Shown: positions 1 through 29,091 of the stretch, piece after piece
Position numbering within the stretch: position 1 is the first letter of the stretch
How the letters are laid out: each line of letters begins with the position of its first letter
Virus record (IMG/VR): IMGVR_UViG_3300020043_000889
Span: 1 to 29,169 of that record
DNA from: a virus
Lineage: Duplodnaviria; Caudoviricetes
Reading direction: 5' to 3' (one strand)
Length of the DNA stretch: 29,169 nt
Position numbers and translations under genes: made by a program
The notes under the pieces: model-generated
The model's database searches: none
Seen by the model: the letters and a program-made list of their open reading frames with translations, nothing else
Told to the model about the DNA's origin: nothing

Positions 1-23
1 TATTGAATTGAGGATTGAACAGC

Positions 24-3918: not shown

Positions 3919-3926
3919 GATAACAG

Positions 3927-4763: not shown

Positions 4764-5023
4764 AAGCGTACAAAAAAACTGTTACAGATACCGTTGTTGA
4801 GTTAGTTCCTAGAGACAGCATCAATCGCCCTGTATATGTACAGATTGAAGGAAACAACACTGTTTATATTGGTGGTGCAAATGTGACAGCAGATCAGGGC
4901 TTTCCGATTGTTAAACACGGCGCACCTATTCAGGGTGGGCTTGGTGCAGGTGATGGGCTGTGGGGTATCTGTGCATCAGGTCAAACAGAAGTGATCCGTA
5001 TCATCACGATTGACGCAGACTGA
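4760..5023 (+). CDS. Hypothetical head-module protein (87 aa)
   Basis: ATGA overlap with upstream gene. Compact beta-like sequence (VYIGGANVTADQGFPI). Confidence 0.7.
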   Translation: MKAYKKTVTDTVVELVPRDSINRPVYVQIEGNNTVYIGGANVTADQGFPIVKHGAPIQGGLGAGDGLWGICASGQTEVIRIITIDAD

Positions 5024-5025
5024 TC

Positions 5026-5697
5026 ATGCCTTACGGAATATCAGCAAATCAATCTGATTGTTCTAATTGGGCTGCAGTAAAGATTGAATCAGATGGATCA
5101 GCAACAACGCTTGCCTGCTACACAACCAAACAAGATGCTATTGATCGCATGGTTGCACAATCATTGGCTGAAGGTTTAGAGCCAGTTGGTGAAGTGGGGC
5201 AGCGCAAGATGAGCAAACGCAATGATGAGATGGTGGCGTTCATTGATTCAGCGATAACAATTCTGATGCAGGCAAAGGCTTCGTATGAGGCTGATGAACT
5301 TGAGGATGAACTTGAGGATGAACTTGAGGATGAGCCAGATGAGGAAATTGAGGATTCTGAATATCGGGCAGTTGATTTGTCTGCGCCTGCGTTCATGCGT
5401 GCTTCAGCCAAGCGTGGTCTGGCGTTGCATGAGCAGGGTTTGTCTGGTGATGGGCTTGTTCCACAGACCGTTGAGGATGCACGCAAGATGGCTGCAGGTC
5501 AGATCAGTGAAGCAAAGTGGCGCAAGATTGGTGCATGGATTGCACGACACATTGACGATCTAGACGCTGTGCAAGGTGATGAGATCACTGCAGGTTTAGT
5601 GGCAATGTTGCTGTGGGGTGGTGGTGCAACTAAGGCTTCAGCACGCAGGGCGCAGGAATATGCGTATCGTGTTGTGGAAAGATTAGATTCCGAATAG
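5026..5697 (+). CDS. Hypothetical head-morphogenesis-associated protein (223 aa)
   Basis: Lies in the operon between portal and protease. N-terminal Cys-containing domain, acidic linker, C-terminal domain ending LLWGG. Confidence 0.7.
   Translation: MPYGISANQSDCSNWAAVKIESDGSATTLACYTTKQDAIDRMVAQSLAEGLEPVGEVGQRKMSKRNDEMVAFIDSAITILMQAKASYEADELEDELEDELEDEPDEEIEDSEYRAVDLSAPAFMRASAKRGLALHEQGLSGDGLVPQTVEDARKMAAGQISEAKWRKIGAWIARHIDDLDAVQGDEITAGLVAMLLWGGGATKASARRAQEYAYRVVERLDSE
5293..5328 (+). repeat. In-frame 12-bp tandem repeat GATGAACTTGAG x3 (DELE x3)
   Basis: Three perfect copies read directly, followed by partial GATGAG. Confidence 0.95.
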
Positions 5698-5711
5698 TAA
5701 GGTAGAAAATT

Positions 5712-6308
5712 ATGAGCGAACTTGTGCAATGGGTGGCAACTGAAGTAGATGAGAAGCGCAGCATTGCGTATTCCAATCTTGAGGTTCGTGCAGAGAATGA
5801 AGGCAGAACGATTGTTGGCTATGCAGCCATTTGGGATTCACCATCTGAGTACATGGGTTTCACAGAGTTTGTTAAGCGTGGTGCTTTCTCAAAGACTTTG
5901 AATGATGGTGCTGATGTGCGTTTGTTGATTGATCATGAAGGCGTACCGTTGGCACGCTCTAAGTCTGGCACTCTTGCACTTGAGGAGGATGAGCGTGGTT
6001 TGCGTGTTGAAGCAGAACTTGATCCAATGAACCCTGATGCTGCACGAATTATGTCAGCAATGAAGCGTGGCGATCTGTCGCAGATGAGTTTTGCGTTTCG
6101 CACAGTCAAGGATTCGTGGAACGCTGATCGTTCAGTTCGTGAACTGCGTGAGGTTCAACTGTTTGATGTGAGCGTTGTTACCTTCCCTGCCTATGAGCAG
6201 ACGGTGGCAGAGTTGCGCAAGATAAATGCACCTGTTACTGTTGCACCAGTTTCTACATTGAGCCTGAGAAAAAATCAGGTTGCTTTGCAGAAACTTCGCA
6301 GCCGTTAG
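5712..6308 (+). CDS. Prohead (capsid maturation) protease, HK97 family
   Basis: GYAAIW, LLIDH (catalytic His), MSFAF (catalytic Ser), DVSVVTFPAY. Confidence 0.96.
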   Translation: MSELVQWVATEVDEKRSIAYSNLEVRAENEGRTIVGYAAIWDSPSEYMGFTEFVKRGAFSKTLNDGADVRLLIDHEGVPLARSKSGTLALEEDERGLRVEAELDPMNPDAARIMSAMKRGDLSQMSFAFRTVKDSWNADRSVRELREVQLFDVSVVTFPAYEQTVAELRKINAPVTVAPVSTLSLRKNQVALQKLRSR

Positions 6309-6314
6309 ACAGCC

Positions 6315-6388
6315 GACCTTATTGGTCACTGACCTCCTAACACTGAAAGGAAAACACATATTCAAATCAGATGATCTTGGAGGTCATT
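6315..6388 (+). promoter_or_regulatory. Structured 5' leader of the capsid gene that can sequester its RBS
   Basis: TGACCTCC (6330-6337) is the exact complement of GGAGGTCA (6379-6386). A small hairpin GACC-TTATT-GGTC lies at 6315-6327. Confidence 0.55.
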
Positions 6389-7708
6389 ATGTCATTTAGT
6401 AAGTCACTTATTGAAAAGCGTGATGCTGCGCTTGCAAAGGCAGATGCCATTGTTGCAGCAGCACAAGCAGAAGCCCGTGAACTCACCCCAGAACAGGATG
6501 CAGAAATTGTTGCAGCACTTGATGAGGTTCGTTCATTGGATGAGCAGATTGCAACCCACAGCGAACTTGAAAAGCGTTCGGCTGAGGCTGCAGAACTCCG
6601 CAAGGAAAAGAAGTTTGATGCAGCAGTTGCACCAGCAGTAGTTAAGTCAGAAGCACGCACCTACAGTCCAAAGGCTGAAGTTTCGTTTGTTGCTGACGCA
6701 TACGCTGCACAGTTCAACAACGACTTCGCTGCCAAAGAGCGTCTTGCACGCCACATGCAAGAGGAAAAGATTGAACGCCGTGATGTAACCAGCGCAAACT
6801 TTGCTGGTTTGGTTGTTCCACAATTCCTCACTGACTTGGCTGCACCATTCGCCCGTGCAGGTCGCCCGTTCTTGGATGTTGCTCGCAAGCATCAACTCCC
6901 TGAATCTGGTTTGACCATCAGCATCAGCAAGGTCACAACTGGATCTGCAACCGCAGTACAAACTGAAGGTGCAGCAGTTCAGGAAACCAACATGGATGAT
7001 ACGAAACTTGATGTTTCGGTAGTCACCGTTGCTGGTCAGCAGAATGTGAGCCGTCAGGCTCTTGAGCGTGGCACAGGCATTGACTCATTGGTAATGGCAG
7101 ATCTTGTTTCTGCATACAACACCAACCTTGATTCATTGTTTGTAACCACCAGCGCAACATCACTAACCAATGTGATCTCGCAGGTTGTCACCTACACTGA
7201 TGCTTCACCATCTGTTGCTGAGTTGTATCCAAAACTGTTGGATGCTGTACAGCGCATTCAGACCAACTACTTCGGTGGACCAAACTTCATCTTGATGCAC
7301 CCACGCCGTTTGGCTTGGATTCTTTCAGCACTTGATACCACCAACCGCCCATTGGCAGTGCCAGTAGGTAACGGTGCGTTCAACGCTGTTTCAGTTGGTC
7401 AAGGTTCAGTTGTTTATGGCAACTCTGGCTACACGATTGCAGGCTTGCCAGTAATCACTGATGCCAATGTGATCACAACCAACGGTGCTGGAACGAACGA
7501 GGATGTCATCATTATTGGTAACACCCAAGAAGCACACCTGTGGGAACAGGGTGATGGTTCGCCAATGATGTTGCGCTTTGAGCAACCAAAGGGTGCTGAA
7601 CTTGATGTTCAGATGATCGTGTACGGATACAGCGCATTCACTGCGAACCGTTATCCAAACGCTTTCGCCCTTGTTGGTGGAACTGGATTGGTAACTCCAA
7701 CCTTCTAA
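6389..7708 (+). CDS. Major capsid protein, HK97 fold, with N-terminal coiled-coil delta domain
   Basis: GGAGG at 6379-6383 before ATG 6389. Helical Ala/Glu-rich N-terminus, GLVVPQFL, ILMHPR, IAGLPVITD. Follows the protease. Confidence 0.95.
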   Translation: MSFSKSLIEKRDAALAKADAIVAAAQAEARELTPEQDAEIVAALDEVRSLDEQIATHSELEKRSAEAAELRKEKKFDAAVAPAVVKSEARTYSPKAEVSFVADAYAAQFNNDFAAKERLARHMQEEKIERRDVTSANFAGLVVPQFLTDLAAPFARAGRPFLDVARKHQLPESGLTISISKVTTGSATAVQTEGAAVQETNMDDTKLDVSVVTVAGQQNVSRQALERGTGIDSLVMADLVSAYNTNLDSLFVTTSATSLTNVISQVVTYTDASPSVAELYPKLLDAVQRIQTNYFGGPNFILMHPRRLAWILSALDTTNRPLAVPVGNGAFNAVSVGQGSVVYGNSGYTIAGLPVITDANVITTNGAGTNEDVIIIGNTQEAHLWEQGDGSPMMLRFEQPKGAELDVQMIVYGYSAFTANRYPNAFALVGGTGLVTPTF

Positions 7709-7737
7709 AGCCGATAACTACATTTCGGATTAGAACC

Positions 7738-7784
7738 GAAAGACCGCCAGCATCTTGAACGGTGTTGGCGGTCTTTCTATTTTC
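7738..7784 (+). terminator. Intrinsic terminator after capsid gene
   Basis: 17-bp stem GAAAGACCGCCAGCATC / GGTGTTGGCGGTCTTTC (two G-U pairs), 6-nt loop, followed by TATTTT. Confidence 0.85.
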
Positions 7785-7802
7785 AGGTGTATGATTTGCG
7801 AC

Positions 7803-8000
7803 ATGAACAAACATATTGAAGCCTTACTTGTTGAGCGTTCTGGTTATGAGCGCAGAGGTCTGAAGGATCGTGTGAAAGCCTGTGATGAAGCATTGCGTGC
7901 ATTAGGTCATTCGGTCAAAACACCAGAGGTTGAAACTGCAAGCATTGAACCTGTAGCAGAGCGTGCTACACGCAAGGCTGCACCTAAGCGTAAGGCGTAA
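7803..8000 (+). CDS. Small hypothetical protein (65 aa) after capsid gene
   Basis: MNKHIEALLVER...KAAPKRKA. Start reassigned to ATG 7803 because the track's start lies inside the terminator. Confidence 0.75.
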   Translation: MNKHIEALLVERSGYERRGLKDRVKACDEALRALGHSVKTPEVETASIEPVAERATRKAAPKRKA

Positions 8001-8003
8001 TCA

Positions 8004-8606
8004 ATGGCAATCGTAAATGGTTACTGTTCCCTGCAGGATGTGAAGTCTGCGCTCAGGCTCACAGACAATGTGGATGATGGGCTTCTTGAGAAGGCTATTG
8101 AATCTGCCTCACGCAGAATTGATGGTTACTGTGGCAGGTTCTTTTACAAGTCCACATCAACATCAATCAACATTTACCCAATCAATGAATACTTGTTGCG
8201 TATGCCACAGGACTTGGCAACCAGCACTGTCACGATCAAGATTGATACAGAAGCAAATGGTACTTATGCGACCACGCTGACACAGGGCGTTGATTATATT
8301 CTTGAACCTACTGACGCTGCGCTTCGTGGCTACCCTTATGTTCATGCCCGTATGGTTGGTGGTGCAACCTTCCCTCTATATGTGACACCATCATTCCCAA
8401 CGGTTCAGGTCACAGCACAATGGGGTTGGAACGCTGTGCCTTCTGATGTGTCTCAGGCTTGTGTACTTCTCGCTATGCGCCAGTTCGCCAGATTAAACGC
8501 TGCGCTTGGTGTTGTTGGTTTCGCTGATATGGCGTTGCAGGTTCGTGCTGTTGATCCTGATGTGCGTGACCTGCTGAATCAGTATGTGGTGTTTGGGGCT
8601 ATCTGA
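8004..8606 (+). CDS. Head-to-tail adaptor (gp6/gp15-like)
   Basis: YCSLQDVKSAL, ASRRIDGYCGR, WGWNAVPSDVSQA, DPDVRDLL and position. Confidence 0.85.
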   Translation: MAIVNGYCSLQDVKSALRLTDNVDDGLLEKAIESASRRIDGYCGRFFYKSTSTSINIYPINEYLLRMPQDLATSTVTIKIDTEANGTYATTLTQGVDYILEPTDAALRGYPYVHARMVGGATFPLYVTPSFPTVQVTAQWGWNAVPSDVSQACVLLAMRQFARLNAALGVVGFADMALQVRAVDPDVRDLLNQYVVFGAI

Positions 8607-9013
8607 TGCCAGCAACTGTTTCGCAAGTTGCTGATGGACTGAAGGCAAGACTGGCAACAATCTCAGGGCTGCGCACTTTCAACTATCAGCCTGAGCAGGA
8701 GAACCCACCTTTCGGATACCCACAAATCAACAGCATTGATTACCACAGAGCCTATAGCGGTGGTGATGTGGTCATGAACTGGACTGTGTATGTGGTTGTT
8801 GGTCGTTATCTTGATCGCACAGCGCACGCACAGTTAGATGATTACCTTTCATATTCTGGTGCTAAGAGCGTGCGTGCAGCAATAGAGGCTGATCCGACAC
8901 TTGGTGGCGTGTGTTCAACTCTCATAGTACGCTCAGGTGCAGACATAACCAGTCTTGATGCTGGTGGCGCACAGTTTTTAGTTATTCAAATGCAAGTGGA
9001 AGTTCACGGATAG
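8606..9013 (+). CDS. Putative tail terminator/completion protein
   Basis: Size, position before the major tail protein and DPTLGG motif. Confidence 0.7.
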   Translation: MPATVSQVADGLKARLATISGLRTFNYQPEQENPPFGYPQINSIDYHRAYSGGDVVMNWTVYVVVGRYLDRTAHAQLDDYLSYSGAKSVRAAIEADPTLGGVCSTLIVRSGADITSLDAGGAQFLVIQMQVEVHG

Positions 9014-9023
9014 GAAACATCAC

Positions 9024-9194
9024 ATGACAACTTACAAAGTTTTGAGCGATAGGTTTGCGCTTGGCGAAAAGGGAAAGACAGTGGACAGTGATGCTCTTGT
9101 TGGGTGTAACATTGAGGCATTGGTTGAAGCAGGACATCTCGCTGAAGTCAGTGCAAAAGTTTCAAAGTCAGTAACAAGCGAACAGGATAAATAA
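9024..9194 (+). CDS. Small hypothetical protein (56 aa)
   Basis: Hand translation MTTYKVLSDRF...NIEALVEAGHL...EQDK. AGGA upstream. Fills the gap between neighbours. Confidence 0.75.
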   Translation: MTTYKVLSDRFALGEKGKTVDSDALVGCNIEALVEAGHLAEVSAKVSKSVTSEQDK

Positions 9195-9196
9195 TC

Positions 9197-9607
9197 ATGG
9201 CTCAAATCGTTCTCAAAGATGTTGGAATTACTATCAACGGCACAGAGTTGTCAGATAGATCAAACTCTGTTGAAGTGAATTATGAAGTGGAGTCAGTTGA
9301 AGTGACTGCGTTCGGAGGCAACCGTTCATTCGTTGGCGGCTTGCAGAACAACACTTGCACTGTTGAACTGATGCAGGACTTCGCTGCAGCAAATGTTGAG
9401 GCAACAATTTTCCCATTGGTCGGAACACAGACCACGATTACTTTTGAACCAATCAAGTCTGCTGGTTCACCTTCAGCAACGAATCCTACCTACACAATCA
9501 CTGGCGCATATCTCGCCAGTCACACACCAATCTCTGGTGGTGTTGGTGAACTCTCAATGACTTCATTGACATTCACTGGTGGAACGCTGGTCAAGACAGT
9601 TGCATAA
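9197..9607 (+). CDS. Major tail (tube) protein
   Basis: 136 aa, beta-rich, EVTAFG...FVGGL, NPTYT. Lies directly upstream of the tail assembly chaperone. Confidence 0.85.
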   Translation: MAQIVLKDVGITINGTELSDRSNSVEVNYEVESVEVTAFGGNRSFVGGLQNNTCTVELMQDFAAANVEATIFPLVGTQTTITFEPIKSAGSPSATNPTYTITGAYLASHTPISGGVGELSMTSLTFTGGTLVKTVA

Positions 9608-9637
9608 ATAAATCAAAACAATTAGAAGGAGACTGCA

Positions 9638-9904
9638 ATGAAAATTGCTTTAATGGTTGAGTTCAATGACGGAACAAAGTCTGATGTTGATGCTGTGTTT
9701 GCTGACTTCGTAGCGTTTGAACGCACATGGCAGCGCAGTGTTGCACGCTTTGAAACAGAGATTCGCTTAACGGATCTTGCATGGTTGGCATGGCACAGTG
9801 AGACACGCACACGCAAAACCAGTTTGAAGTTTGATCCTGACTGGATTAACACTGTCACTACGGTTGAGATCCGTGAGGAAGTTGAAGCCCCAAAAGCCGA
9901 TTAG
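9638..9904 (+). CDS. Tail assembly chaperone (G-like)
   Basis: Position between tail tube and tape measure genes. RBS AGAAGGAGA. Slippery site near the 3' end. Confidence 0.85.
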   Translation: MKIALMVEFNDGTKSDVDAVFADFVAFERTWQRSVARFETEIRLTDLAWLAWHSETRTRKTSLKFDPDWINTVTTVEIREEVEAPKAD

Positions 9905-10053
9905 GTGACGATTCCGCACACTGGATTGTCGCCTATTTAGCCTGCGAAACTGGCATTGCACCCAAACATTTATTGGATGAAAGTGATGTGATGATTCAAG
10001 CCATGTTGGATTATCTTTCCAAGAAGGCTGAACGGGCTAATCGCAAACGGTAG
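9889..10053 (+). other. Programmed -1 frameshift site and extension of the chaperone (GT-like product, 9638..10053)
   Basis: In-phase heptamer C_CCA_AAA at 9889-9895. The -1 frame reads SRLGDDSAHWIVAYLACETGIAPKHLL...RANRKR to TAG 10051-10053. Confidence 0.85.
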
Positions 10054-10065
10054 TAACATCTGCAC

Positions 10066-10617
10066 ATGATCAAAGTTGATGTGTATGGTGTGCGTGAAAC
10101 GCTTGCGGAGTTGCGCAAGTATGAGGCTGAGACTTTTAAGCGCATTAAGAAGGATCTGATTCAGTCTGCTCAACCTGCTGCTGATGCTGTGGGTCGTGAG
10201 TTCCCTGATGAACCTTTAATGAATTGGCACACATCTGGTGGAAGGCTTGACAGTAAATCTAATTTGCCTCCTTACAACGGTGCTTCAGCGAAAAGAAAAG
10301 TGAAAGTTGTTGTCAGTACTAAGCGACCAAGAAACATGAACCAATATGGTTTGATTCGTTTGCAGCAGATGGATGCTGGTGGTCAGGTTTATGATTCTGC
10401 TGGTGCTATCACTAAGGCTGCTAGAGGTTCTAGTGCTTCTGCTGGACAGAAGTTTGTTGCCAATCTTGATAAGCGTTCAAAGCAATCAGCAGGGAATGGC
10501 TGGCGTTCCCGTGTAATGTATCCAGAAACGAAAAAGAATATGCCGTTGATTGAAAAGGCTGTTGAGGCTTCTATTCGTAAGATTGATGGTGAATTACAGA
10601 AGCGATTGAACGGATAA
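10066..10617 (+). CDS. Putative neck/tail-completion protein (HK97 gp10-like)
   Basis: Basic protein starting IKVDVYGVRETLAELRK with C-terminal RVMYP, as in gp10-like proteins. Confidence 0.6.
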   Translation: MIKVDVYGVRETLAELRKYEAETFKRIKKDLIQSAQPAADAVGREFPDEPLMNWHTSGGRLDSKSNLPPYNGASAKRKVKVVVSTKRPRNMNQYGLIRLQQMDAGGQVYDSAGAITKAARGSSASAGQKFVANLDKRSKQSAGNGWRSRVMYPETKKNMPLIEKAVEASIRKIDGELQKRLNG

Positions 10618-10621
10618 CCCT

Positions 10622-13138
10622 ATGGCAGTTGGCGTAAATATAGTCAGTACCTTTGACAGCAAGGGCATCAGCAAGGCTATTAAGGACTTCCAAAAGATTG
10701 AGGGTGCAGGCGGCAAGGCTGCATATTCCTTAAAGACTTTGGATCGTGCTGCTTCAAATGGTGTAAAGAATCTTGCCAAGATTGGTGCAGCAGTTGGTGT
10801 TGCTGCAGGTGCTATCGGTTTCAAACTTGCTTCTGCAGCGTATGAATCACAGAAGGTGATGGCTCAAACCACAGCGATCATCAAGGCTACTGGTGGTGCT
10901 GCAGGTGTTACAGCAACACAGGTTTCTAATTTGTCAGAAAAACTTGCACTTCAAATTGGTGTGGATGATGAGTTAATTCAGAAGTCTGCCAACCTGTTAC
11001 TCACTTTTAAGCAGGTGCAGAATCAGGTTGGTGAGAACAACAACATCTTTGATCGTGCTGTTATAACTGCACAGGATTTGGGCAATGTGTTTGGTTCTGC
11101 TGATGCTGCAGCAATGCAACTTGGTAAGGCGTTGAGTGATCCTGTGAAGGGTATTACTGCTTTGCGTAGGGCTGGTATTAACTTCACTGAGCAGCAGAAG
11201 GAACAGATCAAAACACTGGTTGCTTCAGGGGATATGTTGGGTGCGCAGAAACTCATTCTTGCTGAGGTGGAATCACAGGTTGGTGGTACGGCTGCTGCAA
11301 CTGCCACAGGTTTTGATCGTATGCGTGTCGCTATGGGGAATGTGGCTGAGGAGTTTGGTGCAATCCTGATTCCATACATTGAACGCTTTGCAAACTTTAT
11401 TACTCAAAAGGTTGTTCCATATCTGACGAACCTTGCTGATGTTCTTGGTGAGAAGGGTGTTGGTTCTGCAATCGGAATGTTGGCTGGTGATTTCCTTAAT
11501 TTGACTACCAACATGGGCAAGACTGGCAACATCATTTTGGGTATTGCAACAGCGTTCCTGATGTTGAAGGCTGCAACTGTAGCGTTCACTATTGCCCAGA
11601 CTGCCGCAACTATTGCCACTGCAGCATTTGGTATCGCACTGAACGCTACTGGTATTGGTTTGATAGCAGCAGGCATTGCTGCTGTAGTGGTTGGGCTGAT
11701 CGCTTTGTATGTGAAGTTTGAGGTTGTGCGCAAAGTCGTGAACTCTGTAATCAATTTCATTATTGGTTTGATTGAGAACTGGTTGAACACTTGGATTTTT
11801 GTTATCAACAGAATCATTGACGGAATCAACCTGCTGATTAAGGCTGCCAATTTCTTTGGCGCAGGGCTAGAGGAATTAGGTCATATCGGGGAAGTTGAGT
11901 TTGGGCGTATCGGTAATGCTGCTTCTGGCGCACGCAAACAAATCGGCAGTGTTGCTGAGGTTGCTGGTGCTATGGCAGAAAAAGAAGGTGGCGTTCAAAA
12001 GGTTGTCAAAGCGTTGAAAGATATTGGTGGTGGTGCAGGTGGTGGGGCTGCTGGTGGTGCAGCCAAAGCGGTTGAGACTGCGAAAGAAAAACTAGAGAAA
12101 TATATTGATGCGTTGAAGGGCATGAGTTCTGCACAGAAGTCTGCCCGTGATGCTGACAAATCGTTGATGAAGTCACGCACAAGTTTGGCTGAGGCAACCA
12201 CCAAACTCACTGATGCACAAGCATATTTCAATCAGGTTGTTGCAGGTTATGGTGCTAACAGCAAGCAGGCTAAGGATCGCCAGTTGGCTTTGCGTAAGGC
12301 GCAGGGTGCTGTTGAGCGTGCTGGTTATGATGTTGAAAGTTCAGTGTTCGCTGTAACTAGAGCAGAACAAGAGTTGGCTGCAGTTCGTCTTGATCCTGAA
12401 TCGTCTGCGCAGGCTATTCGTGAATCTGAGATTGCTTTGGCTGAAGCGAAACTGGCTGTTAAGGATGCAACTGAATCGCAAGTTGAGGCAACGGATGCTC
12501 TTGCTGAGGCAGAGCAACTTTTGGATGAGGCGATTAACGGTGCGAAAGAAGGCAGTGACGCATACACAGAAGCATTAGACAAATTGAATGATGCTAAGAA
12601 AGCACAGGTTGATGCTACTGATGCTGTGACTGAAGCATTGGAACGCCAGACTGAAGCAGTTGAACGACTTGCTGAGGCAGAGGAAAAAGCACGCAAAGCA
12701 AGAACTGGTGTTGATGCTGGTGACGCTGCTGCTGCAGAAACAAAGGTTGGTGTTGCACCTTCACCTGTTGCCACAGGTGGTTTGTTTGGTTCGTTTATGG
12801 AGGCTGTGCGTGGACTGCATCCAAACAGCAAAGCATTGAAGTCATCTACACCAGTGACTGATGCACGCAAACAGTTCCCGAAACTGTATGCCGAATATAA
12901 GGCAAAAGGTTTGGCTATGGCACAGGGTGGAATCATCACAAAGCCAACACAACTTCTTGCAGGTGAGGCTGGTGCAGAGGCAATCATTCCACTGGACAAA
13001 CTGCAATCAGGAATGACTGTCAATGTCACAATCAATGCTGGTATGGGTACTGATCCAGCGAAACTTGGTGATGAGATCGTTGATGTTTTGACTAGGTATC
13101 AGCGCAGGAATGGTGCGTTGCCACTGAAGGTTGCCTGA
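10622..13138 (+). CDS. Tape measure protein
   Basis: 838 aa, Ala/Gly-rich and helical, QLGKALSDPVKGITALRRAG, hydrophobic middle, C-terminal MAQGGII...GEAGAEAIIPL. Confidence 0.95.
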   Translation: MAVGVNIVSTFDSKGISKAIKDFQKIEGAGGKAAYSLKTLDRAASNGVKNLAKIGAAVGVAAGAIGFKLASAAYESQKVMAQTTAIIKATGGAAGVTATQVSNLSEKLALQIGVDDELIQKSANLLLTFKQVQNQVGENNNIFDRAVITAQDLGNVFGSADAAAMQLGKALSDPVKGITALRRAGINFTEQQKEQIKTLVASGDMLGAQKLILAEVESQVGGTAAATATGFDRMRVAMGNVAEEFGAILIPYIERFANFITQKVVPYLTNLADVLGEKGVGSAIGMLAGDFLNLTTNMGKTGNIILGIATAFLMLKAATVAFTIAQTAATIATAAFGIALNATGIGLIAAGIAAVVVGLIALYVKFEVVRKVVNSVINFIIGLIENWLNTWIFVINRIIDGINLLIKAANFFGAGLEELGHIGEVEFGRIGNAASGARKQIGSVAEVAGAMAEKEGGVQKVVKALKDIGGGAGGGAAGGAAKAVETAKEKLEKYIDALKGMSSAQKSARDADKSLMKSRTSLAEATTKLTDAQAYFNQVVAGYGANSKQAKDRQLALRKAQGAVERAGYDVESSVFAVTRAEQELAAVRLDPESSAQAIRESEIALAEAKLAVKDATESQVEATDALAEAEQLLDEAINGAKEGSDAYTEALDKLNDAKKAQVDATDAVTEALERQTEAVERLAEAEEKARKARTGVDAGDAAAAETKVGVAPSPVATGGLFGSFMEAVRGLHPNSKALKSSTPVTDARKQFPKLYAEYKAKGLAMAQGGIITKPTQLLAGEAGAEAIIPLDKLQSGMTVNVTINAGMGTDPAKLGDEIVDVLTRYQRRNGALPLKVA

Positions 13139-13139
13139 T

Positions 13140-14417
13140 ATGACCACAATGGCTTGGGGTGAGAACATCCAGATTTTCATGGAGTTGGGGTTTCCTGTAA
13201 ATCCTTTCACGCTCGACGATGCCGTGCTTGGCGTTTTAGATGAGGATTATCTTGATGGCACTTTGATTGGTGATGATGTGTCACCTTATGCTCAAGAGGT
13301 TTCTATCTCACGTGGCCGTTCTGACCAGTTGCAGAACTTTAACGCTGGTACTTGCAGTGTGCGTTTGTTGAACCGTGATCGCAGGTTTGATCCAATTAAT
13401 GAAAGTTCCCCATATTGGAATAGCACGCTTGGTGTTTCTGGTGTTGCGCCACGCAGGAAGGTAACTGTTGTTTCTGATGGTGTCGCATTGTTCACAGGGC
13501 GTATCACAGACATTGATGTTTCCTATGAGCCAAACAATCCGAACGCAACCAGTGAGAACAGTTATGTGACTATCACGGCTGCAGATGACTTTGTGCTGTT
13601 GGCAAACACATTCACAGAATCACCTATTACACCAACGCAAGAGTTGTCTGGAACACGGGTTGCAACAATCCTTGATCTGCCAGAAGTCGGATACCCTGCA
13701 ACTAGGGACATTGATGCTGGTTCAGCAACATTGGGTGGTGGCGCAACCTTTGAGATCGCAGGCAACAGCAATGTTCTGACCTATCTGCAGTCAGTTGCTA
13801 CCAGCGAACAAGGCTATTTCTTTGTTGCAGCGAACGGTGATTTGACTTTCACGGATCGCATTGCAGCCTCGTTTGCAACGATCAGCGCATACTTCTCTGA
13901 CGCTGGAACAAACATCCCTTACACAAGCCTTTCAGTTATGTACGGGCAAGAGTTCCTATACAACAAGGTGGTGTGTTCTGTTGAGGGTGGCACAGATCAA
14001 ACAGTGAATGATGTTGCCTCGCAAACTGAATACGGGATTTCAACACTCAACCTTTCAGGTTTGTTGTTGGTTGATGATGCTGCAGCCCTAGCACTTGCAA
14101 CCGATCTGCTGGACAGGTACAAGTTGCCTGAATACAGGTTTGACAAACTGCAGACCATCTACAATCCTTTGAACTCTGTGAAGCAGGCTGATCTAACAGG
14201 GCTTGAGATTGCTGATGTTGTGAGCATTACACGCACCTACCCAACAGGAACACCAGCCAGTGTCACTAAGGAATACAGCATTGAGAACATCCGTCATGTG
14301 ATCAGCCCTAGTTCACACACGGTTGAGTTCGGGCTTGCTGTTGCTGATCTGGTTTACCCATTCACACTGGATGATGCAACCTTTGGTGTGATGGACTCTA
14401 CAAACGCACTAACTTAG
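13140..14417 (+). CDS. Minor tail / tail-tip (hub-like) protein
   Basis: Directly after the TMP. Acidic and beta-rich (ISRGRS, FTGRITDID, EQGYFFV). Confidence 0.8.
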   Translation: MTTMAWGENIQIFMELGFPVNPFTLDDAVLGVLDEDYLDGTLIGDDVSPYAQEVSISRGRSDQLQNFNAGTCSVRLLNRDRRFDPINESSPYWNSTLGVSGVAPRRKVTVVSDGVALFTGRITDIDVSYEPNNPNATSENSYVTITAADDFVLLANTFTESPITPTQELSGTRVATILDLPEVGYPATRDIDAGSATLGGGATFEIAGNSNVLTYLQSVATSEQGYFFVAANGDLTFTDRIAASFATISAYFSDAGTNIPYTSLSVMYGQEFLYNKVVCSVEGGTDQTVNDVASQTEYGISTLNLSGLLLVDDAAALALATDLLDRYKLPEYRFDKLQTIYNPLNSVKQADLTGLEIADVVSITRTYPTGTPASVTKEYSIENIRHVISPSSHTVEFGLAVADLVYPFTLDDATFGVMDSTNALT

Positions 14418-14438
14418 GGTGTTACACTAGGAGGCATT

Positions 14439-15560
14439 ATGGCTAAACAAACATTTACTTCAGGTCAGGTTCTCACTGCAGAACAACAAAACGCTTTGCA
14501 GGCTAATGATTACAACTGGACTGTGAGCAATAAAACGGCAAACTATACGCTTGTTGCAGCCGATAAGGGAACACGAATTGTGATGAGTAACGCTGGTGCT
14601 ACCACAATCACAGTGAACACAGGTTTGTTTGATGCTGGCGATACTTTGTTTATTCAGAACATTGGTGCAGGTACTTGCACTATTACTGCTGGAACTGCAA
14701 CAGTTACAACTGCTGGCTCTTTAGCGTTGGCACAATGGGGAGGTGGCACGCTTTATTTTACAAGTGCTAGTGCTGCTGTTTTTTTTAGTGGTGGTGGTGC
14801 TAACTATGGCACTGCTTCAGGTGGCACATCAACAACTGTAAGCGGAGTTGCCTATCAGTATCTTGCGTTCACTTCATCTGGAAGTTTTACACCAACCAAA
14901 GCAGGCTTGTTTGATGTGCTTGCGTTTGGTGGCGGTTGTGGCGGTTCGGCAGACTTCTCATATAGCGGTGGTGGTGGTTCAGGTGGAATATCACAGCAGA
15001 CTATTTATCTAAACACAGATGCGCAAACTGTCACTATTGGTGCAGGTGGTGCGGTAGATTCCAGTGGAAACCCATCAAGCATTGGAGTAATACCTAACGC
15101 TATTGCGGTGGCTGGTGGAAGTTTTACTGCTGTTCCTGTTTCTTTGCGTTTTGCGCCCTTAGGTGGAATGTCAGGTGCAACTGGCGGTTACAACGCAGGT
15201 GTCACAAATGTTCAAGGTTATGTCGGTGGGACTTCAAACACTAACGCTGGAGGTGGTGGTGGTTCAACTACTGCTGCAGGTGGAAACGCATCAGCAAATA
15301 TCGGAGGTAATGGTGCGGCTGGTTATGATGTGAGCGCATTTATTGGCAGTTCAGCACTTTTGAAGGGTGCTGGAGGTGGTGGTGGAGCAGGTACAACTGG
15401 TGGAACTGGTGGTTCATCAATAGGCGGAAATGGTGCAAGCGGTGCAACCAATGGGACATCTGCTGGTAACAATACTGCTTCTGGCGGTGGTGGTAGAGGT
15501 TCAACAGGAACGGCTGGTGCTGGTGGTTCAGGTATTATTTATATTCGTTGGAAGGTCTAA
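14439..15560 (+). CDS. Glycine-rich tail fibre / receptor-binding protein
   Basis: GGAGG RBS. N-terminal FTSGQVLTA anchor-like motif. Long Gly-rich C-terminal region ending GAGGSGIIYIRW. Confidence 0.8.
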   Translation: MAKQTFTSGQVLTAEQQNALQANDYNWTVSNKTANYTLVAADKGTRIVMSNAGATTITVNTGLFDAGDTLFIQNIGAGTCTITAGTATVTTAGSLALAQWGGGTLYFTSASAAVFFSGGGANYGTASGGTSTTVSGVAYQYLAFTSSGSFTPTKAGLFDVLAFGGGCGGSADFSYSGGGGSGGISQQTIYLNTDAQTVTIGAGGAVDSSGNPSSIGVIPNAIAVAGGSFTAVPVSLRFAPLGGMSGATGGYNAGVTNVQGYVGGTSNTNAGGGGGSTTAAGGNASANIGGNGAAGYDVSAFIGSSALLKGAGGGGGAGTTGGTGGSSIGGNGASGATNGTSAGNNTASGGGGRGSTGTAGAGGSGIIYIRWKV

Positions 15561-19946: not shown

Positions 19947-20050
19947 AAACCCAATACCTGTATAGGTTTTAATAACTTGCATTGGGTATGGCTGGCAGGG
20001 CATACTTGATGTATGGGGAAGTACCCCACGCTCAAGAGGAGGGCATTATG
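19947..20050 (+). promoter_or_regulatory. Promoter/leader cassette, copy 1
   Basis: AAACCC-N12-GGTTTT dyad, then TTGCAT(19977)-N18-CATACT(20001), then ATGGGGAAGTACCCCACGCTCAAGAGGAGGGCATTATG. Confidence 0.75.
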
Positions 20051-20368
20051 AAAAAGTCAGTGACTTGTAAGAGGTGTGGTCGCAATGATCTTGCTTGGAG
20101 AGAATCCAAAGCAGGCAAGTGGTATCTCACCTACAACGAAGGTGTTGAGATCAGTGGCGAAACTGGAAGGCATATTAAGACTATTCATCCAGCGCATGAG
20201 TGCTTGGTGCGTGACGGTGAACTTACTGAGAAGCGTTGTGATCTCATATTGCGTGGTCGCATCACAACCACTGATGAGGAAATTGCAGAAGCACAAGCAA
20301 TGGAGAACGCAGCGATTGATGCGTTTGAGGCAAAGAACGGTTACAGACCTTTAAGTTGGGCTTGGTAG
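20048..20368 (+). CDS. Hypothetical Zn-binding early protein (106 aa)
   Basis: Strong RBS before ATG 20048. CKRC...HEC. Confidence 0.75.
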   Translation: MKKSVTCKRCGRNDLAWRESKAGKWYLTYNEGVEISGETGRHIKTIHPAHECLVRDGELTEKRCDLILRGRITTTDEEIAEAQAMENAAIDAFEAKNGYRPLSWAW

Positions 20369-24671: not shown

Positions 24672-24970
24672 TACAATCGGCTAGTTGCATGACCCACACT
24701 GTTGCAAGGTGAACGGGTAACACACGGAAAGCGTGGGTAGATTGCGCTGCACTGAATTATGTAAGACGAAATAGTTTGGTCAAAAGCGTGAGGCACTGTG
24801 AGTTGATTTGGTAGTTGGAGTGAGGCATCCCAACGGGAGAGCATTACAACTCTGTCTCTGCTGTGATTCAACAAATATATATATTTCATGTTCAACTGCT
24901 ATGCTTAAGACACACGCCGTAGTGAGGCGAACGACCAGCGCAGATGTTGCGCCGTGACGCTCAGGAGAGC
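24672..24970 (+). other. Structured non-coding region, candidate RNA-primed replication origin
   Basis: TACAAT -10-like box, serial hairpins, GGGAGAGC, AT palindrome at 24873-24886, and three GC hairpins with a pas-like sequence. Confidence 0.5.
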
Positions 24971-25033
24971 AACAGCAAGAAACAAACAAACTTTAGTTCT
25001 ATATCTATATACAAACTTAGAGGAGGGAAAGTG

Positions 25034-25558
25034 ATGGCAAGTTTTATGAGGAAAGTATTAGTAAGTGTGATTGTGGTTCTGGCAGGTTTTGCTGGTGTAG
25101 CGCAAGCGTTGAATGTTGATGAGAAGTCTGGTTCTGTTTATGTAAAGAACAGTTATGTGCCTGATCGTGTGATTGAAGTTCCTTATCCTGTTGCATCTAA
25201 TGCAAAGTGTGGTCAGTGGTGGCAGTTGATGCACGATCTTGGGTGGTCTGACAAAGACATTGCCAAAGGGGATGCAATTATTTTTCGTGAGAGCCGTTGC
25301 AATATTGACAGCGTGAACTCTGCAGATCCAACAACCATTGGCAAGCACAAAGGTTCTTTCGGGTTGTATCAGATCAATCTGTATTGGATTAAGAAAACAC
25401 GCTGGTATCCAAATGGATTCCTGCAAACAAAATTAGAGCGAAATTTAGTACCAACTGACTTGCTGCAGCCTGAAATCAATCTTGCTGCAGCCCTAGAGAT
25501 CATCAAACAGAACAGGGCTGATGGGGGCTGTGGCTGGTCTGCTTGGAGGGCTTGCTAA
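25034..25558 (+). CDS. Secreted lytic transglycosylase (SLT/lysozyme-like)
   Basis: AGAGGAGGG RBS, signal-peptide-like N-terminus, FRESRC (catalytic Glu), GLYQIN, GWSAW. Confidence 0.85.
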   Translation: MASFMRKVLVSVIVVLAGFAGVAQALNVDEKSGSVYVKNSYVPDRVIEVPYPVASNAKCGQWWQLMHDLGWSDKDIAKGDAIIFRESRCNIDSVNSADPTTIGKHKGSFGLYQINLYWIKKTRWYPNGFLQTKLERNLVPTDLLQPEINLAAALEIIKQNRADGGCGWSAWRAC

Positions 25559-25562
25559 CGGG

Positions 25563-25669
25563 AAACCCATGCTGGATATGGGGTTTCTGAATGATTTGCA
25601 ATCAGTCGTGGGATTCCCTATATTTGAGGCATGGGGAAGTACCCCAGTCTCAAGAGGAGGGACATCATG
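25563..25669 (+). promoter_or_regulatory. Promoter/leader cassette, copy 2
   Basis: AAACCC-N12-GGGTTT dyad, then TTGCAA(25596)-N17-TATATT(25619), then ATGGGGAAGTACCCCAGTCTCAAGAGGAGGGACATCATG. Confidence 0.75.
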
Positions 25670-25990
25670 GAAACAAGAGTTGTAAGAGGAATTGAAATCC
25701 AAGTAATCACTGTTGATGAATGGGACACAGTTTCATTGGAACAGAAAGAACAGAACGCAAAGAAGCACAATCGTGCAACACATGGCATTGAACCATGTCA
25801 CCTTTGTGGACAAACGATCAGCGACAAGTCGCTTCCTACATCATGGTATGTACATATGTCCACAAATTGCGAACTTTTGCCAATCGGAATTGAAATCGTT
25901 GAAGGTTCACAGGGATACTTCCCAATCGGCGCATCATGCGCAAAGCGAATCCCAAAGGCGTACAAAACGAAAATGGAGGGAATGTTCTAA
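25667..25990 (+). CDS. Hypothetical early protein (Cys-containing)
   Basis: RBS before ATG 25667, with an in-frame alternative ATG at 25631. PCHLCG...FPIGASCAKR. Confidence 0.75.
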   Translation: METRVVRGIEIQVITVDEWDTVSLEQKEQNAKKHNRATHGIEPCHLCGQTISDKSLPTSWYVHMSTNCELLPIGIEIVEGSQGYFPIGASCAKRIPKAYKTKMEGMF

Positions 25991-26051
25991 GGCGAAACTG
26001 GCGCAAGCCAGTCATTGTGGGATGGTCGCCCACGATCTGATGAGCCAGACC
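25991..26051 (+). ncRNA. Type II hammerhead ribozyme
   Basis: GGC-GAAA-CTGGC(GCAA)GCCAG-TC^-ATTGTGGG(ATGGTCG)CCCACGAT-CTGATGA-GCC. All core nucleotides and three stems are present, with a GUC cleavage triplet and a GGTC/GACC pseudoknot. Confidence 0.93.
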
Positions 26052-26072
26052 TGATTCAAGAGGAGGATCAAA

Positions 26073-26612
26073 ATGAAACTGATAGCAGCAAAAGAGTGGA
26101 ACAAAGTGTTTATGGAAAACAGCCAGAAGCACAGAATCAAAGTCATTGCAGAACTTCATTCACTTGGCGGTCAAGAACCATATTTTTCTATTACTGGCGA
26201 AGTTGATCGTCAAGCCAAAAATAATCGTTGGATGCCATTTTTGAGTGGTTGCATCCATCAAGAAATACTTGAACACTTCTCGAACCTTCAACCACTTGTT
26301 GCAGTTCATTTGTCTGATGAGCAAGGTGTGCCAATGCACGCTTACGCAAACGCTGCATATTGGGCTGGCTACACAAAATATCAGCAGCGTGATATTCCAA
26401 AGTTGGCAAAGCACCTGCGTGTAACAGAATGGTTTGCGAAAGACTTGATTGGCTGGCTGGAACACCACTACGGAACAGACTTTGATGAACTAACAACACC
26501 AGCAATGGCATGGGCTGGAACTTGCGCAGAAAACGATCTGTTAGAGCAATGGGAAAACCAAGCAAAGTTGGCAAAGTCAATGCTCAATGCTGTTGAGGAG
26601 GTTTCAGCATGA
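26073..26612 (+). CDS. Hypothetical early protein (179 aa)
   Basis: TCAAGAGGAGG RBS. YFSITGE...GCIH...HLSD...GVPMHA. Confidence 0.8.
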   Translation: MKLIAAKEWNKVFMENSQKHRIKVIAELHSLGGQEPYFSITGEVDRQAKNNRWMPFLSGCIHQEILEHFSNLQPLVAVHLSDEQGVPMHAYANAAYWAGYTKYQQRDIPKLAKHLRVTEWFAKDLIGWLEHHYGTDFDELTTPAMAWAGTCAENDLLEQWENQAKLAKSMLNAVEEVSA

Positions 26613-26827
26613 ATAATTACACTTTGCAGGTGCGCACTCACATCAAATATGGTCAGCGTTACAGCGACACAGTGCGATATGAAGCAAATGATTTAGCACA
26701 GGCACACAGCAAAGGAAGGAAGTTTGCCACCAGTGCATATGGTTACAACAACATCACACACATAGAACTGCGCACACTGGATGTGTGTTGGGAAACAAAT
26801 AACAACAATCAGGAGGGAATCAAATGA
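26609..26827 (+). CDS. Hypothetical protein (72 aa)
   Basis: GAGGAGG RBS and ATGA overlap. Confidence 0.7.
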   Translation: MNNYTLQVRTHIKYGQRYSDTVRYEANDLAQAHSKGRKFATSAYGYNNITHIELRTLDVCWETNNNNQEGIK

Positions 26828-27093
26828 AAGAACCAAAGCGCACACTGGATCACATTGAACTGATCCAATCAGACCTAGCACCAATGTTTGAAGTCAAACT
26901 GCTGGTGGTCATGGAAGGCTATGTGAGCCGTGAGGAAGGAGATCTGACAGCAGCAGAATGGTTATATAACCTTCTGCAAATGGCATCAGATGGACAGGAC
27001 ATTTCACATGGTGCAAGAGAGTTCATGCGTTCAATGATCTCTACTGGAGAGACACAGGTTCACTTGTGCAAGATTGAGCAGGTGCAGGCATGA
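26824..27093 (+). CDS. Hypothetical protein (89 aa)
   Basis: AGGAGG RBS and ATGA overlap. Confidence 0.7.
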   Translation: MKEPKRTLDHIELIQSDLAPMFEVKLLVVMEGYVSREEGDLTAAEWLYNLLQMASDGQDISHGAREFMRSMISTGETQVHLCKIEQVQA

Positions 27094-27263
27094 CCGATAT
27101 ACCTGACATTCAAGTTGCGCTAATTGTTTTCTGTTCAGCAGGTCTGTGGTTCTGTGGGTTCGCTCATGGCAAATGGTATGGAATCCAGAAAGCAGAGAAA
27201 CGATTTGCAACACAAAGAAAAGCATTAGCAGCAGCCAGAAAGCGTGAGAATCCACACCACTAG
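27090..27263 (+). CDS. Small single-TM protein with basic tail (57 aa)
   Basis: ATGA overlap. MTDIPDIQVALIVFCSAGLWFCGFAHG...RKRENPHH. Confidence 0.7.
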   Translation: MTDIPDIQVALIVFCSAGLWFCGFAHGKWYGIQKAEKRFATQRKALAAARKRENPHH

Positions 27264-27277
27264 GTATGCTGTAATTC

Positions 27278-27352
27278 TCCTGCGGTAAGCCACGCATCCA
27301 GTCTTTCCCCCCTCTTGAGGCTGGATCGCCCATCTGCAATGATGGCGCAGGA
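27278..27352 (+). ncRNA. Candidate small RNA with anti-RBS stem-loop 2 (three-way junction)
   Basis: TATGCT -10-like box at 27265. Closing stem TCCTGCG/CGCAGGA. 10-bp stem ATCCAGTCTT/GAGGCTGGAT with 11-nt loop TCCCCCCTCTT. Second hairpin CCATC/GATGG. Confidence 0.65.
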
Positions 27353-27382
27353 ACTAGAAAGCAAGCGAGAACGGAGAAGCCA

Positions 27383-27517
27383 ATGACTATCAATGACCTG
27401 TTGAACGCCATTTACTTTCTGCGAAAGATCAGCGTTGGACAAATGGAGGTGGACAGGTTAGTTGAAACTGTGGAAGCCTTAGAGAACGAAGTTGAACGCA
27501 GAAGGAGAAAAAAATGA
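27383..27517 (+). CDS. Small hypothetical protein (44 aa)
   Basis: GGAG RBS. MTINDLLNAIYFLRK...ERRRRKK. Confidence 0.7.
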   Translation: MTINDLLNAIYFLRKISVGQMEVDRLVETVEALENEVERRRRKK

Positions 27518-27729
27518 GTGAGGACATGAGAGCCGAACTGCAACATTGGCAGGCACGCACAGATGAGATGCAGGTTGCGTTAGAGCGTGTGCGTGAGGAT
27601 AGAGATGAAGCACGCAACAAGGCACTGCTATTGGAAACAACTAATCAGATGTTGATGGATGAAGTGAAGCAGTTGCGTTCAATGATTGAACGAATCCAAG
27701 TAGCAATGTCACAAGGTCAAGAACTCTAG
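27514..27729 (+). CDS. Coiled-coil hypothetical protein (71 aa)
   Basis: AAGGAG RBS, ATGA overlap and heptad pattern. Confidence 0.75.
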   Translation: MSEDMRAELQHWQARTDEMQVALERVREDRDEARNKALLLETTNQMLMDEVKQLRSMIERIQVAMSQGQEL

Positions 27730-27896
27730 TGATTCAACTGTTGTGCCATAAGTGCAATGTGCTTGTGATCCGTGACCGAATCTATGTAAGCGGATGTGGT
27801 TGCGATCCTGATGCGCCGACATGGTGCGCAATACAACCAGATGGAAAACTGATCACCATGAGCCACGCCGAATACACCATTAAGGAAACAGCATGA
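27729..27896 (+). CDS. Small Cys-rich protein (55 aa)
   Basis: TAGTG coupling. LCHKC...GCGCDPDAPTWC. ATGA overlap with the next gene. Confidence 0.65.
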   Translation: MIQLLCHKCNVLVIRDRIYVSGCGCDPDAPTWCAIQPDGKLITMSHAEYTIKETA

Positions 27897-28438
27897 TCCG
27901 AAAAGAACTAGAACACCTTGCCATCAACATTGATGAGATACACACACACCCATCCAATGTGCGTCAAGGAGATGTGGGTGCAATCAGCGAATCACTAAAG
28001 GCTCACGGACAATACAGAGCGATTGTGTTCCAGAAATCAACAGGCAGAATCCTTGCAGGCAATCACACATGGAAAGCAGCGAAGGCTTTAGGTTGGACAC
28101 AGATAGCAGCAACACCAGTCATATGTGATGACCAGCAAGCCCTGCGCATACTGCTGGCAGATAACAAAGCCAATGATCTCGCAACCTATGACGAACCAGA
28201 ACTGATTGAACTGCTGAAGCAACTGGCAAACACAGACGAAGGACTACTAGGAACACTCTTTGATGGTGACGAACTGGATCATTTGATCTCTGATGATCAG
28301 CAAGATCAAACAGGAGATCAACTTTCATTTTCAGAAAAGTATGAAGTTGTTATTGAATGTAAAAACGAAAACGAACAAGCAGAACTTTTGGAAAGACTTC
28401 ACAACGAAGGTCTAACAGTTAGAGCATTAACCATATGA
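27893..28438 (+). CDS. ParB/Sulfiredoxin N-terminal domain protein
   Basis: HPSNVRQGD, GQYRAIV, ILAGNHTWKAA, LADNK. Confidence 0.88.
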   Translation: MIRKELEHLAINIDEIHTHPSNVRQGDVGAISESLKAHGQYRAIVFQKSTGRILAGNHTWKAAKALGWTQIAATPVICDDQQALRILLADNKANDLATYDEPELIELLKQLANTDEGLLGTLFDGDELDHLISDDQQDQTGDQLSFSEKYEVVIECKNENEQAELLERLHNEGLTVRALTI

Positions 28439-29091
28439 GTATCACACTTAAATCAAACATTGTTGAAACACCAAGAGTTATGCAGATAAGAGGAATGTTT
28501 GATATAGAAACACAAAAAACAGAAACAACAACAATAAACGACAATATCCCAGACTTAACAGAAAAAGAATGGAACATTGGTTTAATAGTTGGTGCATCTG
28601 GAACAGGCAAATCAACCATTGCCAAAAAACATTTCAACCAACTGCTAGACCCAGAAGTTCAATGGCAAAACAATGCGCTTATAGATAACTTCCCAAAACA
28701 AAACACACTCAAAGAAATAGTTGCAACGCTCACATCAGTGGGACTGTCAAGCCCACCAACATGGCTGCGACCATACGAAACACTTTCAACAGGAGAAAAG
28801 TTCCGTGCAAACACAGCCAGACTTCTACTAGAACACCCAGAACTGGTAGCAATAGATGAGTTCACATCAGTAGTGGACAGAACAGTTGCACAAATAGCAT
28901 CAACATCAATCAGCAAGACAGTACGAAAAAGAAAACAAAAATTAGTTGCAGTGTCATGTCACTACGACATAATTGAATGGCTACAACCAGATTGGATTTA
29001 CGAACCACAAAGTGGTCAATTCACATGGAGGTCACTTCAACCCAGACCAATCATACAAGCCAACATCATCAAAGTTGATAAAGCAGCGTGA
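28435..29091 (+). CDS. ABC-type ATPase domain protein, probably 3'-truncated
   Basis: Walker A GASGTGKST, signature-like LSTGEK, Walker B AIDEF, H-loop SCH. No TM partner gene. Confidence 0.88.
   Translation: MSITLKSNIVETPRVMQIRGMFDIETQKTETTTINDNIPDLTEKEWNIGLIVGASGTGKSTIAKKHFNQLLDPEVQWQNNALIDNFPKQNTLKEIVATLTSVGLSSPPTWLRPYETLSTGEKFRANTARLLLEHPELVAIDEFTSVVDRTVAQIASTSISKTVRKRKQKLVAVSCHYDIIEWLQPDWIYEPQSGQFTWRSLQPRPIIQANIIKVDKAA

Follow-up and report, generated by a model that had tools for sequence, protein, structure and literature searches.

The window analysed here, a 29,169-nt virus record, carries on its plus strand a gene for a predicted tRNA-shaped RNA (core 27278-27356) whose open loop mirrors the ribosome-binding sites (RBSs) of the phage's own repeated leaders and changes together with them in related phages. 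This double correspondence makes it likely that the RNA pairs with those messages, and such pairing would switch off their translation. Judged from sequence and predicted folds, the RNA is on balance probably a trans-acting antisense repressor of leader translation, one that would work like the C4 RNA of phage P1 but is not C4. A first-pass annotation of this DNA had put forward a trans-acting RNA that silences a regulon of early genes addressed by a shared RBS barcode. All sequence strings it quoted are present at the positions given for them, and the idea of a silencing RNA gains from conservation, co-variation and a -10 box; membership of the transglycosylase gene is, however, doubtful, and the barcode is relative rather than strict.

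The RNA, its promoter and its genomic setting

The core, defined by folds, alignment and a covariance model (R1), comprises a 7-bp acceptor-like stem (27278-27284 paired with 27346-27352), a 2-bp D-like stem (27285-27293), a long hairpin predicted in place of the anticodon arm (27296-27326), a T-like arm of 5 bp with the loop UGCAAU (27330-27345) and a CCA-less tail (27353-27356) that reads ACUA here and mostly so across the family. The three-way junction reported by the first-pass annotation is real: the fold has an energy of -31.9 kcal/mol (z -3.0) and beats 199 of 200 shuffles, the remaining one being equally good. The tRNA-like scaffold had been overlooked, however, and the core is redrawn accordingly. 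Model R1 gives the window RNA, a member of its training set, 96.4 bits; a search of Rfam with the window RNA returned no family above cut-off.

The RNA is present in 60 contig groups of related uncultured phages, many of them close kin, which were gathered by pattern scans of viral and metagenome contigs, plus protein scans, and which contain 36 distinct cores; viral matches to loose patterns that lacked the scaffold were set aside as chance after folding. Among 19 loci fetched by way of the ParB protein alone, 16 have the RNA, and the other three each extend no more than 600 nt upstream of ParB. RNAalifold applied to 28 sequences gave 14 pairs, seven with double changes and none broken. When all 36 distinct RNAs are aligned, pairing reaches 98% in the acceptor-like stem and 100% in the D-like and T-like stems, and the covariation score is 0.456 as against 0.162 for shuffled and at most 0.127 for slid alignments. 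Only 73% of the long hairpin is paired in the same alignment, because its register shifts; folded singly, all 31 distinct versions give the hairpin. Counted by group, the seven acceptor-like pairs are complete in 55 of 60 groups and six of seven form in the other five, while the T stem has five of five pairs in all 60. The invariance of the D-loop and T-loop motifs is partly forced by the search patterns, and two held-out RNAs differ in the T-loop (UGCGAU, UGUAAU); from an invariant G and an invariant C we infer a contact between the two loops. One divergent member (L243 5002-5082) has a rewritten T-arm region and retains the -10 box, the closing stem and the antisense loop. Structural conservation, which had been named as a check on the original proposal, is thus found, as covarying stems across the 36 distinct RNAs.

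The TATGCT box to which the first-pass annotation had drawn attention (27265-27270) is conserved as TANNNT and is the predicted -10 element of the RNA's own promoter. All 60 groups, with 50 distinct upstream sequences between them, have such a box ending 7-9 nt ahead of the first stem, against a background of 1.3%; no consensus -35 was seen upstream of the RNA in the window. Transcription would begin 1-3 nt ahead of the acceptor-like stem and continue into the downstream genes. With no terminator-like site found between the RNA and the gene at 27383-27517, the RNA is probably the first part of a longer transcript, from which it would have to be cut at its 3' end. RNase Z acts on CCA-less precursors, and the host's tRNA 3'-processing enzyme would free a stable RNA of about 79 nt. 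The predicted start leaves a 5' leader of 1-3 nt, and the overall shape fits a tRNA-processing substrate; the tRNA-like body would supply both stability and the processing signal.

The small conserved plus-strand gene directly 3' of the RNA (27383-27517), homologues of which, 61-98% identical, also adjoin the RNA, probably shares its transcript. Control of this gene in cis was ruled out: its RBS pairs weakly, with a mean loop duplex of -7.8 kcal/mol over 57 groups. The corresponding mean for the best cassette leader is -19.7 kcal/mol (36 groups), a best-of figure and therefore biased. In four relatives the RNA sits 3.8-4.6 kb ahead of the large terminase gene; some relatives have a further barcoded cassette between the two. 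It is this position, together with the missing -35, that suggests that the RNA is made later than its predicted targets.

Every family-matched gene of the window is on the plus strand. Head and tail genes (15-15560, from family matches) are followed by genes for an exonuclease, a RecE-like exonuclease, an annealing protein, WhiB, an SLT-like transglycosylase, small proteins, a ParB-like protein and an ATPase. The WhiB gene (Pfam match, E 1e-14) points to an actinobacterial host. The four near-complete relatives measure 31.8-32.6 kb, and none of the four has a tyrosine integrase or a serine recombinase, so that an integrated lysogen is not evident. A blastn search with 24800-28500 against 50,697 GenBank phage records gave no match; a scan of GTDB genomes for the RNA pattern gave six matches, none with the fold, and accordingly neither a prophage nor a host was recognised there.

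Some further features of the record deserve mention. It is 2.6-3.4 kb shorter than the near-complete relatives. An 85-nt inverted repeat lies at the contig end (28646-28730 and 29085-29169), where the ATPase gene stops at position 212 of its 357-position profile; repeat and cut gene are probably an assembly artefact. The adjacent ORFs 5026-5697 and 5712-6308 match successive stretches (1-174 and 218-379) of one profile, the head maturation protease phrog_80. Upstream of the transglycosylase gene, a conserved non-coding stretch with several small hairpins (24905-25033) recurs in relatives and has no match in Rfam.

Repeated leaders and predicted pairing within the window

Three leaders, all on the plus strand, were delimited from sequence and folds. 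Leader cassette 1 (19977-20050), whose layout is the same in relatives, consists of a promoter-like TTGCAT-18-CATACT, a 5' hairpin (20014-20028), a Shine-Dalgarno (SD) hairpin GCUC-AAGAGGA-GGGC (20030-20044) and the ATG at 20048. Leader cassette 2 (25596-25669) has a promoter-like TTGCAA-17-TATATT, a 5' hairpin (25632-25646), an SD hairpin GUCUC-AAGAGGA-GGGAC (25647-25663) and the ATG at 25667. Both promoter-like sites are of the sigma-70 type and both 5' hairpins are GC-rich. Leader 3 (26052-26075; SD hairpin UGAUUC-AAGAGGA-GGAUCA, ATG at 26073) adjoins on its 5' side a type II hammerhead (25990-26054; Rfam RF02276, E 2.7e-7, 48.7 bits against a cut-off of 37), whose predicted cleavage site in the message follows GUC near 26013. 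The genes headed by these leaders, the predicted targets, are 20048-20368 (a weak match to phrog_11871 and none to Pfam), 25667-25990 (no PHROG or Pfam match) and 26073-26612 (phrog_17696, E 3e-18). The repeat originally described as a 13-nt leader is therefore real, and its sites were placed correctly, but the unit is longer (promoter, 5' hairpin and SD hairpin) and its hairpin nature had gone unnoticed.

In relatives, leader slots lie behind promoters, hammerheads or anticodon-less tRNA-like cassettes. The A-type and B-type leaders form small hairpins whose loop holds the SD and whose stems covary (GCUC/GGGC, GUUC/GGAC and AUUC/GGAU around AAGAGGA; CCCU/AGGG around GAGG); the C-type leaders are mostly unstructured. 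Type II hammerheads stand directly 5' of barcoded leaders in the window and in L012, L014, L039, L103, L122, L138, L159, L246 and L243, some of them with CUGAAGA in place of CUGAUGA. The tRNA-like cassettes form a second family of 24 distinct sequences, with a T-loop TTCRA followed by a small GGC...GCC hairpin, and precede barcoded leaders in relatives where the window has its hammerhead (L007 4676-4746, L011 5650-5720 and 6017-6087, L246 4350-4415, and others). They had no match in Rfam in eight related loci, and may punctuate the early transcript.

The antisense seed, delimited by complementarity and fold, spans 27306-27319 and combines the open loop with a GAG at the top of the stem. The 13-mer loop of the first-pass annotation is indeed complementary to the leaders, but only 27306-27316 (UCCCCCCUCUU), mostly C and U, is predicted to be unpaired; the last GAG belongs to the RNA's own stem, which has two G-U pairs at this end. 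With up to one mismatch, CTCAAGAGGAGGG occurs at three sites in the window (20031 and 25649 on the plus strand, 27307 on the minus strand), where 0.03 occurrences are expected by chance and none of 100 shuffles reached three.

These features suggest a course of events. The RNA, likely transcribed from its own promoter, would pair in trans with the hairpin leaders that head accessory cassettes. The loop CCUCUU would kiss the leader loop AAGAGG first, and pairing would then zip to 12-14 bp as the G-U-rich stem top opens; the resulting duplex would cover the SD and so shut off translation.

Predicted energies give a more measured picture. Among 1,446 sites in a plain duplex scan the leaders rank 2, 4 and 20; the antisense strand of the RNA gene itself comes first and the RBS of the transglycosylase gene fifth. 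A scan that took accessibility into account and gave each start region 60 nt of upstream sequence placed the leaders at ranks 4, 7 and 22 among 47, rather than first, the outcome for which a genome-wide ranking had been proposed as a check. The top nine of the 47 are all strong-SD sites, eight of them within 20-27 kb. With predicted 5' ends, applied to the three leaders only, net binding is -12.5, -11.2 and -8.3 kcal/mol, the best other site having -11.9; co-folding of leader 3 gains a mere -0.8 kcal/mol. Ranks and net values together make the predicted binding plausible but modest, and partly generic anti-SD; the scores leave out loop-loop kissing. The transglycosylase RBS (25019-25030), which had been counted in the regulon, does match at 11 of 12 positions. 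The match is mostly SD core, however, and in several relatives it is interrupted by an inserted C, which makes it a doubtful target and probably not a true member.

Loop and leader across lineages

If the loop reads the leaders, then the two should correspond in each lineage. Cassette leaders were defined independently of the RNA, doubtful ones being retained, and this gave 70 leaders in 36 of the 60 groups. With row and column effects removed, binding is better for the cognate loop than for the other classes in 30 of 36 groups; permutation of classes gives p 0.004 (seven classes) or 0.042 (four lineages, the smallest value that four allow). A-loop phages (25 groups) have 44 A-type leaders, one A2-type and no B-type, and phages with B or B3 loops (17 groups) have 58 B-type and two A-type leaders. 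A loose A-rich C2-type motif is present in all classes and is non-specific. In L138 and L159 the loop matches the phage's own promoter leader over 14 nt, and in L073 loop and leader are altered together.

When run on 75 sources, the covariance model added four RNAs to those found by the patterns; one is weak (E 0.12), and all four match their own leaders (L220 B with B; L246, L237 and L243 A with A). The transglycosylase tree places the A-loop phages L237, L246 and L243 inside the B clade (support 95/84) and separate from the A clade of the window, which means that loop and leader switched together there; a quick RecE tree did not include these three. Co-variation of loop and leader, one of the checks proposed by the first-pass annotation, is thereby borne out across lineages (44 to 0 for A, 58 to 2 for B), two phages being counter-examples.

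The correspondence has its limits. Independent switches number only about three to four, the RNA is inherited along with the leaders, and phage modules are subject to recombination. L144 and L145 combine a C1-like loop with four B-type leaders, a mismatch to the rule that possibly reflects a recent module exchange after which the match has not yet been restored; L005 and L010 have a B loop and yet one A-type leader each. In raw energies the C1 loop binds best on six of seven leader classes, and the cognate class is not the top binder for rows A, B, B3, C1b and C2. B-type pairing past the SD requires a 2-nt bulge, and the C2-type extensions look like generic SD context. Of the barcode as first conceived there remains a pairing extension that follows the leader type of the lineage; the specificity is relative only, given the raw binding of C1, the equal standing of other early RBSs and the mismatched pair L144 and L145.

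An alternative, which we consider unlikely, is that the RNA is a broad trans-acting anti-SD brake. It would act on any RBS that is strong and rich in purines, in early phage genes as in the host, and the lineage match would merely tune it. The pyrimidine-rich loop, the strong-SD character of the nine best start regions and the fact that non-cognate loops bind the leaders almost equally are what such a brake would predict. It fits poorly with the A-type loops, which keep UUGAG across divergent scaffolds even though they are imperfect anti-SDs (a C faces the A of GGAGG), and with a pairing extension that follows the phage's own leader type.

Pairing might also play no part. It is quite unlikely that the leader hairpins are protein-binding or translation elements, the RNA a tRNA-like 5' cap or processing signal, and the loop a non-pairing inverted copy of the leader. 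Similarity of the loop would then be kept by descent or by recombination. In favour are the phage's genes for an annealing protein and a RecE-like exonuclease, the leader stems that covary by themselves, the 24 other tRNA-like cassettes of the relatives that have no such loop, and the several cluster K phages that retain the SAS repeat (below) without an antisense loop. On the other side, the loop of L243 was kept while the surrounding stems and T-arm were rewritten, and a constant mismatch or small indel relative to the leaders persists, which copying would erase.

The same pairing could have another outcome. A part of the SD is held in the leader stem, as it would be if the RNA opened the leader hairpin to activate translation, and the discrete loop and leader types recall the C4 specificity of P1 and P7 (PMC5320573), as they would if the RNA mainly silenced co-infecting kin in the manner of P1/P7 heteroimmunity. 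We consider both very unlikely: the duplex that would have to activate would cover the SD itself, and the four near-complete relatives have no integrase or recombinase of the two kinds searched for. Finally, it is highly improbable that the motif is a DNA operator used in both orientations (as the TTGA...TCAA inverted repeat of some promoter leaders might suggest) or the minus-strand RBS of an antisense ORF (27031-27411, where an ATG follows the motif on that strand in the window), given that promoterless leaders behind hammerheads and tRNA-like cassettes retain the motif, that the inverted copy tolerates indels, and that the ORF itself was ruled out, being 8-88 codons long or startless across the 36 RNAs and having no family match.

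A possible wider scheme and comparison with known systems

If the RNA is indeed an antisense repressor of its leaders, then one RNA, with no repressor protein, would control the phage's changing set of accessory genes, and a newly acquired gene would join the regulon just by landing behind a standard leader. The scaffold is a tRNA mimic not catalogued before, with a loop re-specified in nature, and as such is relevant to RNA biology and to synthetic regulators in actinobacteria. A tentative and rather unlikely generalization is that phages use a two-part RNA addressing system: a hairpin RBS gives each accessory cassette its address, and a small RNA, here a re-programmable loop on a tRNA mimic, reads the address and shuts the early regulon as the phage passes from early to late expression. 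On this view the SAS repeats of cluster K would be such addresses, and the lone reversed SAS in the late leader their antisense reader. The cluster K parallel makes the role of SAS, open since 2011, directly testable in a cultured phage and a laboratory host.

SAS is a 13-nt asymmetric repeat with symmetric ends; in cluster K mycobacteriophages and cluster EF Microbacterium phages it marks the RBS of non-structural genes and often follows a SigA-like promoter (PMC3203893, PMC11373665, PMC7302621; treated also in PMC12699233). A single SAS in opposite orientation is reported for four K1 phages, and the same paper leaves the role of the repeat open, naming an RNA or a protein partner as possible (PMC3203893). 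The window leaders resemble SAS in standing 4-6 nt before the ATG (the SAS criterion is 3-9 nt), in belonging to the non-structural region and in being conserved past the SD. Their sequence is distinct, however, and there are three copies in the window and up to 5-6 in the relatives' stretches, as against 11-19 per cluster K genome.

The sense strand carries the reversed SAS of Adephagia (58682-58694) and Anaya, which in both phages occupies the loop of a long GC-rich hairpin. The Adephagia hairpin (L258, JF704105 58655-58720) lies in the gap between genes 92 and 93, where late transcription starts (PMC11373665). The anti-SAS loop is present in five of 12 cluster K genomes (Adephagia, Anaya, LastHope, Amelie and, in another place, Kratio) and degenerate and C-rich in two (Amgine, TClif); in the remaining five it is absent, at that hairpin in Yuna, Keshu and TBond007 and genome-wide with up to two mismatches in TM4 and Pixie. 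Random 10-mers fall in such a loop in about 5% of cases (27 and 30 of 600). Amgine, TClif, Yuna and Keshu still have 14-18 SAS copies, so that leaders of this kind can persist in phages in which no antisense loop was found; the patchy distribution cuts both ways. In Microbacterium phage AnnaSerena no reversed SAS was found with up to two mismatches, the four sites with three mismatches being outside such loops. The reversed SAS of Kratio (L262, KM923971 813-825) follows a tRNA-Trp and is inside an annotated hypothetical gene; L259, L267 and L268 are the other loci among the five with the reversed SAS in such a loop. The gene 92-93 gap itself (L258-L259, L267-L273) is a conserved multi-hairpin region of more than 200 nt with matches in 177 phage records, which often annotate it as a hypothetical gene; five stretches of it gave no Rfam family above cut-off. 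The reversed SAS occupies a plain GC-rich hairpin in only some subclusters, whereas the window loop stands on a tRNA-shaped scaffold, and R1 found no match in five cluster K genomes; the cluster K element is an analogue, not a homologue, of the window RNA.

For the scaffold the systems to be compared are tRNA, the tRNA-like structure (TLS) of tmRNA and bacterial Y RNA. Like a tRNA, the RNA has a 7+5 bp stack of acceptor and T stems, a T-loop-like UGCAAU, a D-like loop that contains G and a 3' NCUA, and ARAGORN at a relaxed score calls two distinct members (L017 and L018) tRNA-Lys. It departs from tRNA in lacking an encoded CCA, a TTC-containing T-loop and the anticodon stem of 5 bp with its 7-nt loop. 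In the window RNA the predicted central loop has 11 nt and stands on a 10-bp stem; this loop varies with leader type, and the tRNA model RF00005 did not match the RNA. PMC10690425 contains unannotated IMG/VR models, and the RNA could be one of them. Titles and abstract openings in the literature, a coverage that takes in few of the subscription papers, describe neither the tRNA-shaped RNA nor an anti-SAS RNA.

The CI RNA of satellite phage P4 is a small processed RNA with loops that pair with the leader of the phage itself; it acts on its own transcript to bring about termination and immunity. The window RNA shares with CI its small size and a loop that matches the phage's own leaders. It differs in that its predicted targets are the RBS hairpins of other cassettes and in that no coupling to a terminator was seen.

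Closest in proposed mode of action is the C4 RNA of P1 and P7. This RNA has about 77 nt and three stems, its loops pair with the phage's own mRNA over the RBS, loop and target differ together between phages, and host RNase P handles it (PMC5320573, PMC12197685; C4 is also treated in the supplement of PMC2864571). The window RNA, too, has a loop that is complementary to a phage RBS and co-varies with it, two counter-example phages apart. The C4 model RF01695 gave no match up to E 5 in the window and up to E 10 locally. C4 has the loops a' and b', whereas the window RNA has one pyrimidine-rich antisense loop, its other loops being conserved D-like and T-like motifs. C4 is directed at one antirepressor operon; the predicted targets here are several dispersed leaders, and no antirepressor of an icd/ant immunity operon is among the RNA's neighbours. 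The window, moreover, is from an actinobacterial phage whose four near-complete relatives are without integrase.
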